Source: Candidatus Micrarchaeota archaeon (GTDB lineage: Archaea; Micrarchaeota; Micrarchaeia; Norongarragalinales; SBBD01). Taken from it: DNA of 39,023 nt. The notes beneath the pieces are model-generated. The model had not been told where the DNA came from. It saw nothing but the letters and a program-made list of their open reading frames with translations, and did not search any database. The stretch is taken from NCBI GenBank assembly GCA_043813365.1, contig JBDRLB010000062.1, positions 1 through 39,023 on the forward strand, given 5' to 3'. A program made the translations under genes and the position numbers. Shown here piece by piece: positions 3,186 to 23,087 of this stretch (position 1 is the stretch's first letter; the number at the start of each line of letters is the position of its first letter).

Positions 3186-5252
3186 ATGGCAAAGCAGAAA
3201 GTGCAGCTGATAATTGCGGAAAAGCCGAAAGCAGCAGAAAAAATAGCGCACGCGATCTCTCCTTCAGCAAAAATGCACAACCTCCACGGGGTCAACTATT
3301 TCGAGCTTGAGCTTGCAGGAATGAAGGTGTATGTTGCGCCGGCGGTTGGCCATATTTACACGCTTGCACAAAAGGAAAAGGGCGCAGCCTATCCCGTATT
3401 CGACATCGAATGGAAGGAAGCGCACGAGATCAACGAATCTTCCAGCTTCACCAAAAAATACCTTCTGCTTATAAAGAAGCTCGCAAAGGAAGCGAACGAG
3501 CTCGTATCCGCTTGCGATTATGACATCGAGGGCAGCCTCATCGCAGGGAACATTATCCAACATGTCGGAAAAGGGAAGCCCGCAAAAAGGATGCTCTTCT
3601 CCACGCTCACGGCAGATGAGCTGAAGGATGCTTATGAAAACCTTACTCCGCTTGATGTCACCTCCATCGCTGCGGGAGAAGCGCGCCATATTCTCGATTA
3701 TTATTGGGGGATTAATACGAGCAGGGCGCTGATGGCAGCTATAAAAAGCGCAGGAAGGTTCCGGATAATGAGCATCGGCAGGGTGCAGGGGCCTGCTTTA
3801 TCCATTCTTGCCCACAAGGAAAAGGAAATTTCCGCTTTCAAGCCGCAGAAATACTTGGAAGTGCATGCGTTTGCAAAGAGAACGGATTTCATCCATGAGA
3901 AGGGGCGTTTTTTCGAAATTGAGGAGGGCGAAAAGGCTTACCGGGAGTGCAAGAACGAAAAAACCGGCATGATAACTGGCGTAATTCGCAGGAAATTCAA
4001 GCAACTGCAGCCCGTGCCCTTCGACCTTACCACTTTGCAGGTGGAATCTTACAGGAATTTCGGGTTCTCGCCAACGCGCACATTGCAGCTGGCGCAATCG
4101 CTTTATGATGATGCATTGATTTCATACCCGCGCACTTCCTCGCAGAAGCTGCCCTCGAAATTGGGGCTGAAAAAAATCATCGAAATGGTCGGGAAGAACC
4201 CACTCTACTCGAAATTCACCTCGCAATTGATTTCACAAAACCGTACTACCCCCCACGAGGGCGAAAAGGTCGATTCGGCGCACGTTGCAATTTACCCAAC
4301 TGGCCAGCTGGCGAACCGCATAGCAGCGGACGAAGCCAAATTGTATGATCTCATAGTGAAGCGCTTCCTTTCCACGTTCGCCTCCCCCGCAATAAGGGAA
4401 AGCATGAAAGTGACGCTCCAGATTGCAAATAACAATTTCCTCGCAGACGGCACGCGCACCCTGGAGGAGGGTTGGTTCGCTTTCTATAGGCCATATTTGC
4501 ATCTGGAGGAAATTATCCTGCCCGAATTCAAGGAGAGTGAAAATGTCGCAATTGAAAAAGTTGAAAAGCTGGAAAAAGAAACCCAGCCTCCTAGGAGATA
4601 TACCCCTGCATCCATCATCAGGGAGCTCGAGCGCCAGAATCTGGGCACCAAAGCCACGCGTTCGGTTGTAGTTGACACGCTTTTCAACCGCGCCTACCTT
4701 TCGGACAAGAAATCAATCAAAGTCACGCAGTTTGGGATGGCGGTTTATGATGCACTTTCGGAGAATGTGCCCGAAATTACCAATGAGACGCTCACGCGCG
4801 AATTCGAGGAGAAGGTGGAGAAGATCGAGAAGGGGGAAATAAAGGGCGACTCGGTAATTGCGGAAGGCAAGAAAATAATCACCAAAATTCTGGATGAATT
4901 CAGGGAGAATGAGGAAAAAGTGGGGAAGCAGCTGCTTAAGGGACACGATGTTGCCCAGAAAGCAGCCAGCATTCTTGGGAAATGCAACCTTTGCAAATCA
5001 GGGAACCTGCAAATCCGGAGGAGCAAGTTCGGCTTTTTTGTTGGGTGCAGTAGCTACCCCAATTGCAAGAACATATTCCCGCTTCCCAGAAATGCACTGA
5101 TTGAAGCCAAGGGCACTGTCTGCAAGGTTTGTGGCGTGCCGGAGATTAAAGTGATCCGTAAAGGAAAACGACCTTGGGAGATGTGCCTTAATCCTTCGTG
5201 TCCCACAAAAGAGAATTGGTCTAAAAAATCATTTAAATCTCCAGAAAGTTAG
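3186..5252 (+). CDS. topA: DNA topoisomerase type IA with C-terminal zinc ribbons
   Basis: TOPRIM AEKP and DYDIEG, GRVQ, catalytic SYPRT, LGTKATR and C-terminal CxxC motifs. Start placed at MAKQK, downstream of TATATAAA. Confidence 0.95.
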   Translation: MAKQKVQLIIAEKPKAAEKIAHAISPSAKMHNLHGVNYFELELAGMKVYVAPAVGHIYTLAQKEKGAAYPVFDIEWKEAHEINESSSFTKKYLLLIKKLAKEANELVSACDYDIEGSLIAGNIIQHVGKGKPAKRMLFSTLTADELKDAYENLTPLDVTSIAAGEARHILDYYWGINTSRALMAAIKSAGRFRIMSIGRVQGPALSILAHKEKEISAFKPQKYLEVHAFAKRTDFIHEKGRFFEIEEGEKAYRECKNEKTGMITGVIRRKFKQLQPVPFDLTTLQVESYRNFGFSPTRTLQLAQSLYDDALISYPRTSSQKLPSKLGLKKIIEMVGKNPLYSKFTSQLISQNRTTPHEGEKVDSAHVAIYPTGQLANRIAADEAKLYDLIVKRFLSTFASPAIRESMKVTLQIANNNFLADGTRTLEEGWFAFYRPYLHLEEIILPEFKESENVAIEKVEKLEKETQPPRRYTPASIIRELERQNLGTKATRSVVVDTLFNRAYLSDKKSIKVTQFGMAVYDALSENVPEITNETLTREFEEKVEKIEKGEIKGDSVIAEGKKIITKILDEFRENEEKVGKQLLKGHDVAQKAASILGKCNLCKSGNLQIRRSKFGFFVGCSSYPNCKNIFPLPRNALIEAKGTVCKVCGVPEIKVIRKGKRPWEMCLNPSCPTKENWSKKSFKSPES

Positions 5253-5790
5253 CAATTTTGTTTATTTCGCTCTCTGAAATAGGATTCCAGTAGAACTCGT
5301 AAATAAAAAATGTTTTCAAGAACTCAACCATTGGGATGCTTAATATACTGCACGTGCTTTCCCCATAGGAAACCGCTTTTAGTTTAAACAATTTTTCGAC
5401 TTTTTTCGCATCACCGTGCACAAGCAAAACTCCTTTTCCGCTCTCAAGGAATTTTTCTATTTACGGCTTCACTTTATTTCCAGCTACAACTTGGAATGGT
5501 ATGCCGGCTTTCTGCAAATTAGCCTTTGAAAGCTCAAGCATTTGAGGGGAAATTTCAAGTGCTACTACTTTACTTCCTTTTCTTGCTAACGGAATTAGAT
5601 GTTGGCTTGTTCCGGCTCCTATATAGAGGACATTGCCATTCATCGCATCGAGCTTCTCCTGCTCCCTTGTCCTGAAATTTGTAAGCTTCGGAACTCCGGT
5701 TTTCCCTTCATCAATTGCCCGCTCGAACTCATTGTAGCGGCCGGCATTGGAATTGTAGAACTCTCTTGAGCCTTTGAATAAAGGAGCCAT
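5233..5790 (-). pseudogene. Disrupted class I SAM-dependent methyltransferase
   Basis: Motif I VLYIGAGTS and VVALEISPQML. An in-frame TAA at 5461-5463 is followed by an open continuation in the same frame (IEKFLESGKGVLLVHGDAKK...) to 5233. Confidence 0.65.
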
Positions 5791-5838
5791 AAGTTGTTTT
5801 CCTTCGCAATGAATAAATAGCTAAGCTAATCCGCCATT

Positions 5839-6170
5839 CGTTCCAGTTCCCGCCAATCTCGCTGCTTCTCCTTTCCATGCTCTCGCGGGTTCCAACTTAA
5901 GCCTTATCCCTCCTTTAAGGAGGACCGCTGCGTCGCTCACCTTCACTACCGCTACGGTTCACGTCGCAACGCTAAAGGCATAAGGGAACGCCGCTCGCCA
6001 ACGGACGCTTGAAGTCGAATCAGCTTCGATTTGGCTTCTTAATAGGACCTTCCGCTCACATCAGACGGAAGAATTGCTTAGTTGTAGATTCAATTGAGCA
6101 AAGCTTGCCTGAAGACAAGAACGCTAAAGTCAGGCAGGCAGCCTTACGCAACCCAAAGACAACGCGCTAA
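5839..6170 (+). ncRNA. Putative structured non-coding element (tandem hairpins), family unknown
   Basis: At least six stems, e.g. CCTCCT/AGGAGG, AAGTCGAA/TTCGATTT, CTTCCG/CGGAAG, TTGCTTAGTTG/CAATTGAGCAA and GCTTGCCTGA/TCAGGCAGGC. The imperfect pairs are G-T on the + strand. Confidence 0.45.
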
Positions 6171-6207
6171 AATAACTCTTTTTAAATCACCCCTGCGAAT
6201 CTGTATT

Positions 6208-7596
6208 ATGGTCAAGCAAGAACTCTTATACGAACGGATTTTCTCCGAAATAGCCCTAAGGGTCTCCCCAACTGCGAAGGAGGCTGCAATGGAAAAGGAA
6301 TTTGCTGAAGGGATTAGAAAAAAGCTCCAGAAGGCGCTCGGAAAAAAGGCAAATCTGTTTTTCGTAGGCTCCACCGCAAGGGACACCGGCATCCGGGGCG
6401 ATAGGGACATTGATATTTTCGTTGCGTTCCCGAAAGGAAAAAGCAAGGAGGAGATAGTCAAAACAACCATTACGACTGTGAAGCGCATCCTTCCCGCTAA
6501 ATGGGAAATGCATTATGCGGAACACCCGTATTTGCAGGCGAAATTGGGCAATTTCAAGGTGGAAATTGTTCCGTGCTTCAAGATAAAGGTAAACGAGGGG
6601 ATAATTTCCGCAGTTGACAGGACCCCTCTGCATGCGCTTTATTTGCAAAAACACCTCACGCAGAAGCAAAAAAGGGATGTGCGGGTCCTGAAGGCACTGC
6701 TTAAAGCGCACGAAATCTATGGGGCAGAATTGGAAATCGAGGGTTTTTCAGGCTTGGTTTGCGAATACTTGGTGCTTAATTACAGGTCGCTTTCCATCCT
6801 CCTTTCAGAAGCATCCAAATGGAAGCCACCCGTCATCTTAGATATCGAGGACTATTATGACCAGCAATACGAGCCCCTCATTCAAAAGTACAAAAGCCCG
6901 CTGATAATAATCGATTTCATTGACAGGAACCGGAATGCTGCTGCTGCGATAAGCAGGAAAAGCTTCGACAAGTTCGTTTCGCTTTCAAAAGCGTTCCTCT
7001 CAAACCCGTCTGAAAAATGGTTCAGGAAGCCCGAAATCACCTTCACGGAAAAGGAACTAACTGCGGCAATAATGAAGCGGAATTTCCTCCTATTGAAAAT
7101 GAGGAAGCCCTCCAATTTGGTGGATGATATAATAATTCCACAGTTGAGAAAAAGTGAACGGGCCTTGGCAACACAGCTTGAGCTCGCTGATTTCGAAGTG
7201 GAGCAAACAGCATCATTCCAAAACGAAAATGAAAGCTATATCCTGCTGGATATGCGGGCGTTAATCCTTCCAACAAAAAAAACCATATTTGGCCCCCCTG
7301 TTGAAATGGAGGAAAACGTAGGGCGGTTCATGGCCGCGCATCCTAAACCAATAAAGGGCCCCTACAAAACCAAAGGGAGGCTCGCTGTTGATATTAAGCG
7401 CAAAAGCCCCGATGCCGCAAAGCTTCTTGCAATGCTGATACGGAATCCCGCTTCAGCAGGGGTAGCATCCCATTTCATAAAGCCGATGAATTCCGCGAGG
7501 CTGTTATCGGGGCATAATTTATTATATGAGCTTAAAAAGAATAGCTACTTGCAAGTAAAAATTGCCGAACTTCTTTTTTCAAAGCCGATAAGGTAA
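6208..7596 (+). CDS. cca: CCA-adding enzyme (class I tRNA nucleotidyltransferase)
   Basis: GSTARDT...DIDIF, YAEHPY, SAVDRTPLH, YGAE and GFSGLVCE motifs. Start moved to MVKQ, behind a TTTTTAAA box. Confidence 0.95.
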   Translation: MVKQELLYERIFSEIALRVSPTAKEAAMEKEFAEGIRKKLQKALGKKANLFFVGSTARDTGIRGDRDIDIFVAFPKGKSKEEIVKTTITTVKRILPAKWEMHYAEHPYLQAKLGNFKVEIVPCFKIKVNEGIISAVDRTPLHALYLQKHLTQKQKRDVRVLKALLKAHEIYGAELEIEGFSGLVCEYLVLNYRSLSILLSEASKWKPPVILDIEDYYDQQYEPLIQKYKSPLIIIDFIDRNRNAAAAISRKSFDKFVSLSKAFLSNPSEKWFRKPEITFTEKELTAAIMKRNFLLLKMRKPSNLVDDIIIPQLRKSERALATQLELADFEVEQTASFQNENESYILLDMRALILPTKKTIFGPPVEMEENVGRFMAAHPKPIKGPYKTKGRLAVDIKRKSPDAAKLLAMLIRNPASAGVASHFIKPMNSARLLSGHNLLYELKKNSYLQVKIAELLFSKPIR

Positions 7597-7613
7597 ACGA
7601 TGGTGATCTGTAT

Positions 7614-7949
7614 ATGGGAAAAATACTGGTATCAACTTTGCAGTCAATTGAAGGCTATTCCATGAAGGAGCACAAAGGGCTGGTATGGACGAGCAGCGCG
7701 AGGAGCAAGAACGTGCTGCAGGATTTCACCGCGCTTACAAAAAGCCTGACCGGGGGGGAAACGAAGCACTTCCGCGATTTGCTCCACGATGCACGCAATG
7801 ACATTGTCAACGGGCTTGCGGAGCAGGCCAAATCAATCGGCGCAAACGCGGTGTTGGGGGTGCAGATGGGCTCGACGCAAATCTCCCCTGCCATAATGGA
7901 CATTTTCGCCTACGGATCCGCCGTTGTCCTCGAAAAAAGGAAAAAATGA
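7614..7949 (+). CDS. YbjQ/UPF0145 family protein
   Basis: GGE...AR...A..IGANAVLGV...AYGSAV pattern. Confidence 0.9.
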   Translation: MGKILVSTLQSIEGYSMKEHKGLVWTSSARSKNVLQDFTALTKSLTGGETKHFRDLLHDARNDIVNGLAEQAKSIGANAVLGVQMGSTQISPAIMDIFAYGSAVVLEKRKK

Positions 7950-22915: not shown

Positions 22916-23087
22916 GGGCCCGTAGCTCAGCCTGGATAGAGCGACAGCCTTCTAAGCTGTAGGTCGTGGGTCCGAATCGCCTGCCTTGCCTTTCTTTTCA
23001 GAAAAGAAAGGCGTAAGGCGCCGCCAAAGAAAACAATTTGCGGCTCCGCCAATTAGTCGGCAAGGCATGGATATCCCACCGGGCCCG
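22916..23087 (+). tRNA. tRNA-Arg(TCT) with a 97-nt non-canonical intron (22977-23073) in the T-loop at position 59/60
   Basis: Acceptor GGGCCCG/CGGGCCC, D-arm GCTC/GAGC, anticodon arm ACAGC-CTTCTAA-GCTGT and T-stem GTGGG/CCCAC, split by an insert with a bulge-helix-loop junction. No encoded CCA. T-rich tract downstream. Confidence 0.92.

Follow-up and report, generated by a model that had tools for sequence, protein, structure and literature searches.

In the window, by which we mean the whole 39,023-nt stretch of Candidatus Micrarchaeota DNA analysed here (GenBank assembly GCA_043813365.1, contig JBDRLB010000062.1), the interval that separates a broken methyltransferase gene from cca is with a probability of about 0.6 the gene for an undescribed structured RNA that belongs to the flexible genome and is predicted to be transcribed on the + strand. 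An undescribed non-coding RNA had been one of two readings offered by the original prediction, and it is the best supported one: the element matches no Rfam family, its five full copies have a fold of many helices in common, in which both partners of a pair have often changed, and folding of the + strand is favoured. The claim is built on these five copies in three metagenome bins.

The element and its locus

The window is contig C62 of the genome bin G000 (1.34 Mb in 78 contigs, 88.6% complete) and represents a core chromosomal stretch. It was compared with the genomes G001, G002, G003, G005 and G007, of which G002 belongs to the genus of the window; all genomes are metagenome bins. Alignment to the four other full copies and a covariance model delimit the conserved core of the candidate RNA gene to positions 5855-6167 on the + strand (~313-315 nt), and homology to the other copies begins sharply at 5855, with AATCTCGC. 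The G+C content is 0.55-0.58 over 5850-6074 as compared to ~0.43-0.47 in the surroundings. The claim that this stretch holds no credible open reading frame was borne out, as each of the six frames of the window copy is interrupted by 3 to 9 stops, and none stays open throughout the five copies. Substitutions among the element copies distribute over positions modulo 3 as 23/18/12, and no frame is conserved on either strand. Coding on the - strand, considered for short peptide-like conserved stretches in the 5' module, was rejected, as a 1-nt length difference within a conserved block shifts the frame between copies.

The short motifs from which the original prediction had assembled its stems all lie where it placed them. 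These are CGTTCC at 5839 and GGAACG at 5985, CCCGC at 5849 and GCGGG at 5885, CCTTAT at 5902 and ATAAGG at 5980, followed by CCTCCT at 5909, AGGAGG at 5918, GGACCG at 5922, CGGTTC at 5955, CTTCCG at 6049 and CGGAAG at 6066, while the arms of the tandem stems are found at 6012 (AAGTCGAA), 6025 (TTCGATTT), 6074 (TTGCTTAGTTG), 6091 (CAATTGAGCAA), 6103 (GCTTGCCTGA) and 6130 (TCAGGCAGGC). The repeated AACGCTAAAG is likewise present at 5968 and 6120; this pair is retained in the second G000 copy on contig C36, and G007 retains part of it only.

On the upstream side, topA ends at 5252, as read from gene order, and the broken methyltransferase gene (5233-5790, - strand) runs divergently from the element. 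It is split into pieces of 109 and 64 aa, of which only the 109-aa piece matches Pfam Methyltransf_25 and Methyltransf_11. An intact 243-aa homologue of this methyltransferase with the same promoter is found in G005, and the homology stops at window position 5847, just ahead of the element. On the downstream side, cca (6208-7596, + strand; Pfam tRNA_NucTransf2, CAA_C and NTP_transf_2) encodes the archaeal CCA-adding enzyme, has its own promoter box and lies outside the element; its promoter and start are conserved in G002, which is without the element. BLAST of window 4300-7700 against the G002 locus revealed that the segment 5253-6176 is absent there. As topA and cca lie ~75 nt apart in G002, the broken methyltransferase gene, its promoter and the element together constitute a 0.92-kb insertion in the window.

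Between the divergent methyltransferase gene and the element, an A/T-rich, TATA-like box can be read from the sequence at 5812-5820. It is a possible promoter shared by both, in which case the RNA would start at ~5838-5842. Comparable A/T boxes were seen by eye 40-47 nt ahead of the sharp 5' edge in 7 of 14 aligned copies of the 5' part. After the element, a run of five T on the + strand (6179-6183), which overlaps the cca promoter box TTTTTAAAT, a box also present in G002, is a possible archaeal terminator, and transcription of the element would extend from the A/T box to this T run. As a separate observation, a near-identical promoter-like stretch of ~45 nt (AATAAATAGCTAAGCTAATCCG...) occurs at window 5800-5847 and in the loci L017 (927-975), L022 (9540-9597) and L012 (~1500-1560). 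In three genomes it heads a methyltransferase gene (G000, G005) or a 271/452-aa gene of no known function (G000:C36, G001), three unrelated genes by our count.

None of the 4227 models of Rfam 15, against which the original prediction was checked, matches the region at gathering scores, and at E<=10 no match was obtained for window 5700-6300 or for the loci with the four other copies either. ARAGORN found no tRNA or tmRNA gene in window 5600-6400. The sole Rfam match in the window at gathering scores is a tRNA elsewhere in it. A tRNA gene at 22916-23087 (+ strand) has the anticodon loop CUUCUAA (UCU, Arg) and a T-loop that is apparently split by an insert of ~100 nt, beyond which the T-stem is completed by its 3' half and the acceptor stem is closed at ~23074-23087, with a T run thereafter; Rfam covers only 22916-22974 (36.5 bits), and ARAGORN does not report it.

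RNase P RNA and SRP RNA, to which the original prediction could not match the element, were both located elsewhere in G000. The RNase P RNA (RF00373) lies at C77:13338-13614 with 103.5 bits and the SRP RNA (RF01857) at C70:5477-5744, full length at 69 bits, which is below its cut-off of 96.5 bits. Archaeal RNase P and SRP RNAs resemble the element in size and in a G+C content above the local average. However, neither model matches contig C62, and with the genome's own copies on C77 and C70 both RNAs were rejected as its identity. OLE, GOLLD, ROOL and HEARO are orphan large structured RNAs found by comparative genomics, and the element is likewise ~300 nt long, rich in helices, patchy in distribution and linked to mobile or accessory DNA. 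Unlike them, it matches no Rfam model (0 of 4227), is archaeal and is confined to one Micrarchaeota family. In the literature on Micrarchaeota, on non-coding and structured RNA of DPANN archaea, on archaeal integrons and attC sites and on mobile elements and defence, neither an RNA nor an array of this kind is described in those parts of the sources that were accessible.

The predicted fold and its strand

Folding the five copies jointly with RNAalifold yields 70 pairs in 10 helices, 18 of these pairs being changed on both sides. In total, 89.2% of the cells are paired, as compared to 81.4% in column shuffles and at most 48% with the partners slid. The 18 both-side changes stand against a shuffle mean of 9.5 (sd 1.9), with none of 500 shuffles attaining 18, and against at most 8 with the partners slid; these counts are conservative because MAFFT displaces an arm of helix 8 by a single column in the row of the window copy. 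The five sequences stem from three genomes and represent about three independent lineages, and related sequences can beat shuffles without structure, so the covariation figures are weak statistics that are suggestive and do not amount to a formal test.

The RNA would fold into an unpaired pyrimidine-rich leader, a domain closed by a long-range helix and holding two hairpins, a conserved core and three tandem hairpins, all on the + strand. The leader (5855-5884) is unpaired up to 5877 in the consensus fold, while 5878-5884 takes part in a weak closing helix; it is also the stretch common to all cut-off copies described below, as seen in the 14-copy alignment and in BLAST pieces in G001, G003 and G007. 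The 5' domain (5886-5992) is closed by 5886-5905 pairing with 5975-5992 and encloses a hairpin at 5908-5924 and a variable hairpin region at 5926-5972. It is followed by the most conserved stretch of the element (5993-6048), which contains a hairpin at ~6011-6038 whose register is ambiguous, with 82% of the cells paired in the register chosen by RNAalifold. The three tandem hairpins (6049-6139) comprise 6049-6054/6066-6071, 6074-6084/6091-6101 and 6103-6112/6130-6139 and correspond to helices 8, 9 and 10. A possible closing helix that spans 5878-6164 pairs 5878-5884 with 6158-6164 (helices 1 and 2, 80-87% of the cells paired). In the window copy this helix is weak, and a small hairpin at ~6142-6158 seems degenerate when the alignment is inspected by eye.

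Compared with this consensus, the stems proposed from the window sequence alone held up in part. The hairpins at 5908-5924, 6049-6071, 6074-6101 and 6103-6139 recur in the other copies, as does one at ~6011-6038 with its ambiguous register, but the pairings of CGTTCC at 5839 with GGAACG at 5985, of CCCGC with GCGGG and of GGACCG with CGGTTC are not conserved. The conserved partner of 5985-5992 is 5886-5893 instead of CGTTCC at 5839. The CCTTAT/ATAAGG stem is not kept in its exact register; the other copies have CTTA/TAAG plus GCCTT/AAGGC in its place. The long-range helix (5886-5905 with 5975-5992) was recovered in separate folds of all five copies, and in both G007 copies the insertion of a G into the 5' arm is compensated by that of a C into the 3' arm. 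G001 builds the same helix from a different sequence. A covariance model of the 5' domain (R2), made from the type-b copies, that is the four full-length copies other than that of G001, reaches only 14.1 bits (E 0.1, not significant) on the 5' domain of G001, so homology in this domain of G001 rests on position and fold.

As for the folding energy, a comparison proposed in the original prediction, the window copy folds only modestly better than shuffled sequences. Folded as single RNA sequences, the + strand gives a z-score of -2.76, which 0 of 100 shuffles equalled, and the - strand one of -2.74, equalled by 1 of 100, and hence no strand preference; the corresponding values for folding as DNA are -1.64 (+) and -2.09 (-). 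With z-scores this modest and nearly equal, thermodynamics alone neither proves structure nor picks the strand, but the comparative data do both. The argument that G-T pairs point to folding of the + strand is supported, as the same helices contain 40 G-U cells on the + strand vs 12 on the - strand. Consensus energies are -54.96 kcal/mol on the + strand vs -36.58 kcal/mol on the - strand for five sequences, and -67.3 vs -51.8 kcal/mol for four. In helices 9 (6076-6084 with 6091-6099) and 10 (6103-6112 with 6130-6139), 100% of the cells are paired; 4 and 3 of their pairs, respectively, have changed on both sides, and their G-U pairs would become A-C if read on the - strand.

These data also bear on the view that the element is a decaying remnant, a pseudogene or dead mobile DNA, whose apparent structure reflects chance and shared ancestry. 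Its dispensability (present in 3 of 10 genomes), the adjoining broken gene, the modest z-scores that are equal on both strands and the small number of independent sequences would all suit such a remnant. We nevertheless regard it as highly improbable, as no frame is conserved on either strand, helices 9 and 10 are fully paired with seven both-side pairs and with wobble pairs on one strand, and the core is 76-79% identical between the genera of G000 and G007, whose RadA proteins are ~75% identical.

Full-length copies, their distribution and neighbours

By BLAST and covariance model, five full-length copies were identified, namely the window copy and those on G000:C36, G001:C75, G007:C55 and G007:C19. 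The G000:C36 copy (1829-2143, with a BLAST match over 1831-2154) is 85% identical to the window element; it lies on a 2.4-kb contig and could come from a related strain. A covariance model of the 3' 172 nt of the element (R1) scores 153-200 bits on the five copies and at most 16 bits on anything else in 67 genomes of the order. Within one Micrarchaeota family of groundwater archaea, 3 of 10 genomes carry the element (G000, G001 and G007), none of the 57 other genomes of the order yields an R1 match above 16 bits, and a sample of 151 genomes of the phylum gave matches in G000 and G007 only, with no further copy. Most of the 7 family genomes without the element are ~90% complete and some are assembled in 7-8 contigs, so the element is dispensable. 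A weak R1 match on the - strand of G007:C51 (40046-40152, locus L044; 13.7 bits, E 0.08) may be due to chance or represent a very divergent relative.

An exact-pattern scan of genome, metagenome and viral contig collections returned nothing for the conserved core. For the 5' module, true matches were limited to the loci L049 and L053, where the two cut-off copies of G003:C100 are met again; five bacterial and two other metagenome matches were discarded, as they agree in the pattern only. Groundwater metagenome contigs, which are short and of low depth, hold further sequence variants, one of them with a different flank up to the position equivalent to 5855, and no joints are visible in them.

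Conservation along the element is mosaic. Across the most conserved stretch (5993-6048), identity is 96% for the pair of G000 copies and 76-79% for G000 against G007, while the hairpins of these two genomes share ~50%. In G001 the three 3' hairpins are 82-90% identical to those of G000, and the core is 45% identical. Many differences between the G000 copies involve A, for which a template/variable pair of a diversity-generating retroelement was considered. This candidate was rejected, as inspection by eye showed many differences without an A and both copies are located outside genes.

As to whether the copies flank variable genes, a check named in the original prediction, their neighbours differ from copy to copy, and no nuclease or recombinase gene stands beside them. 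The window copy is flanked by the broken methyltransferase gene and cca, the G000:C36 copy by a B3/4-domain gene and a small orphan gene, and the copies on G001:C75 and G007:C55 are followed by the small orphan gene and then by an AAA_14/DUF4143 ATPase gene, whose product matches the PADLOC candidate PDC-S01 (5.6e-108). The G007:C19 copy lies at the end of a ribosomal protein operon next to a convergent gene for ribosomal protein L30; ~750 nt upstream of it, on the - strand at 495-1145 (locus L024), a gene with the transposase-type domains HTH_33, HTH_32 and HTH_23 was noted. On G001:C75 (locus L022), the ATPase gene is flanked by direct repeats of 50 nt (5840-5889 and 7322-7371, 80% identical). 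These match the final part of the small orphan gene, at its 3' end, and look as though the ATPase gene had entered there with a duplication of its target.

The small orphan gene (98 aa, MQAKGSW...) stands directly 3' of three of the five full copies in the same orientation (G000:C36, G001:C75 and G007:C55), and among the 10 family genomes it occurs in exactly the three that carry the element. Four homologues only were found among 5.77 billion proteins, Pfam, PHROGs and PADLOC contain nothing matching the protein, and an AlphaFold model was unusable (mean pLDDT 49.9). The shared occurrence and orientation would be expected if the element were a long structured 5' leader controlling the orphan gene, with the window and G007:C19 copies as displaced remnants. 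We consider this unlikely, given that two of the five copies precede unrelated genes: the window copy stands before cca, whose separate promoter is also found in G002 and which begins after the T5 run, and the G007:C19 copy faces the convergent L30 gene. Both solitary copies keep the fold. Moreover, the orphan gene starts only ~90-110 nt beyond the element, after a spacer that contains T-rich stretches.

Cut-off copies and a possible site for the uptake of accessory genes

Besides the full copies, ten cut-off copies of the first 35-130 nt were found, nine of them clear and one weak: five on G001:C75, one on G000:C36, two on G003:C100, one on G007:C29 and the weak one on G003:C23. The 5' module was aligned in 14 copies, comprising the four full-length type-b copies, the full G001 copy and nine cut-off copies, with the weak G003:C23 copy left out. 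All 14 begin at the same sharp 5' edge, equivalent to window position 5855, and the cut-off copies vary in their 3' ends. Such variable ends (35 to 130 nt) fit poorly to a single site-specific core, and the cut-off copies could also have arisen by decay of whole copies or by homologous recombination. The long-range helix cannot form in them, and the arrays do not repeat the 3' two thirds of the element, where most of the hairpins lie.

On G001:C75, the five cut-off copies all lie upstream of the full copy in the same orientation and separate units of 0.7-4 kb that contain unknown genes, a DUF2130 gene, a Schlafen/AlbA-type gene, a ParE pair and methyltransferase genes. Most copies of the module have, as judged by eye, a divergent gene start 16-124 nt ahead of the edge with an A/T box in between. 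The G000:C36 array consists of one cut-off copy upstream of the full copy, again in the same orientation. The window reads as the upstream flank of the C36 cut-off copy joined to the body of the C36 full copy, minus the intervening B3/4-domain gene. From this comparison, the two loci may differ by the presence of a single unit between a pair of modules.

The second reading of the original prediction, a folded single-stranded DNA site of a mobile or gene-cassette system that had carried the neighbouring methyltransferase, finds its partial support here. The methyltransferase gene and the element do lie in one 0.92-kb insertion, and cut-off 5' copies do mark the borders of accessory genes, but the repeats are not attC-like and the hairpin-rich part of the element is not repeated. 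The attC sites of integrons have the boundary consensus RYYYAAC...GTTRRRY, and a search for such box pairs 40-140 nt apart on both strands of nine regions (the window element, two on C36 and six intergenic regions of G001) found none. Folded as single-stranded DNA, the cut-off modules yield -2.4 to -10.9 kcal/mol with z-scores between -3.1 and +0.7, and the first 25 nt, which are conserved, remain unpaired; without an end-to-end hairpin in single-stranded DNA and without paired boundary boxes, the repeats cannot be called attC-like. No tyrosine recombinase is encoded on the contigs with the element or arrays or among the array genes; genes with a Phage_integrase domain lie on other contigs (G000:C63, G001:C57, G007:C1 and C50), and G003 has none.

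A wider form of this idea, in which the element is a recombination site acting as DNA, be it a folded single strand or a duplex, and the hairpins serve a recombinase and not a functional RNA, is in line with several observations: the 5' module occurs ten times at the borders of small accessory genes, toxin-antitoxin genes included, mostly in one orientation, the window reads like the left flank of the upstream C36 module joined to the full C36 copy without the B3/4 gene, and the element entered the locus together with the methyltransferase gene. We still hold it to be rather unlikely, for it is the first 35-130 nt alone that recur and not the hairpin-rich 3' two thirds, attC box pairs are missing from all nine regions, folding as single-stranded DNA is weak and these contigs carry no integrase. 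A fold of 300 nt with a long-range helix and with unpaired stretches conserved across two genera is, in addition, typical of an RNA.

Archaeal integrons with canonical attC sites have been described (Ghaly et al. 2022, PMC9668308), in a paper whose main text does not contain the word Micrarchaeota. As in the arrays found here, integron arrays hold short accessory genes between similar repeats, mostly in one orientation and including toxin-antitoxin genes, and the CALIN clusters of the same source likewise have no integrase beside the array (PMC9668308). In contrast to integrons, the repeats reported here are without attC boxes or a hairpin, many of the array genes have A/T promoter boxes of their own, and no integron-type integrase adjoins them.

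Genes for tRNA and tmRNA are integration sites of genomic islands and integrative elements. The arrays resemble such sites in that the end of an RNA gene is found in direct partial copies at the borders of inserted accessory or defence genes, with the intact gene at one end of the array, which is an arrangement expected of an RNA gene that serves for island attachment. They differ in that the repeated part is the 5' end, measures 35-130 nt and borders units of 0.7-4 kb without an integrase, and in that the RNA of the element is not universal and itself lies on inserted DNA; the likeness to islands is one of sequence arrangement.

A further candidate is an RNA that serves a mobile element as guide or scaffold, such as an omega-RNA of TnpB or IscB or a bridge RNA of IS110, whose protein gene is lost or located elsewhere. 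The sharp 5' boundary with unrelated flanks is in line with such an RNA, and so are its size and structure and its association with inserted DNA, as are the three G007 copies with variable ~10 nt between conserved segments just ahead of the edge. On the protein side, no TnpB-type zinc-ribbon domain (PF07282) scores above cut-off in five genomes, the IS110 transposase domain (PF01548) is found in none of these five, and a serine recombinase in G002 and G007 only. As the element furthermore has no match in Rfam, which includes the HEARO family, and its varying neighbours comprise no nuclease or recombinase, we judge a guide RNA to be very improbable.

Under the preferred reading as a gene for a structured RNA, the RNA would act in trans, perhaps together with the small orphan protein. 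The first 35-130 nt of its gene may at the same time provide an attachment or recombination site for circular or incoming gene units that carry this stretch and are inserted upstream. With each such event the RNA gene would be restored to full length, while a truncated 5' copy would stay behind on the distal side of the unit, much as at tRNA and tmRNA genes that have received islands. One could go further and take the RNA gene for the anchor of a cassette capture in DPANN archaea for which no classical integron integrase is needed. Small units of promoter and gene, each with a copy of the 5' leader, would be inserted serially into that leader and so build up an array of defence and accessory genes, and the RNA, perhaps with the orphan protein, might help to choose or join the site. 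We mention this as a speculation with a small chance of being correct.

To our knowledge, almost nothing is known of the non-coding RNAs of DPANN archaea, which have tiny genomes, or of how accessory genes are gained and shuffled there. A multi-helix RNA of ~315 nt without an Rfam relative would be a new candidate RNA family, and its cut-off copies amid toxin-antitoxin, methyltransferase and candidate defence genes suggest a concrete site of gene uptake in these archaea that can be put to the test and would be comparable to tRNA-gene hotspots or integrons while being built on other sequence features.
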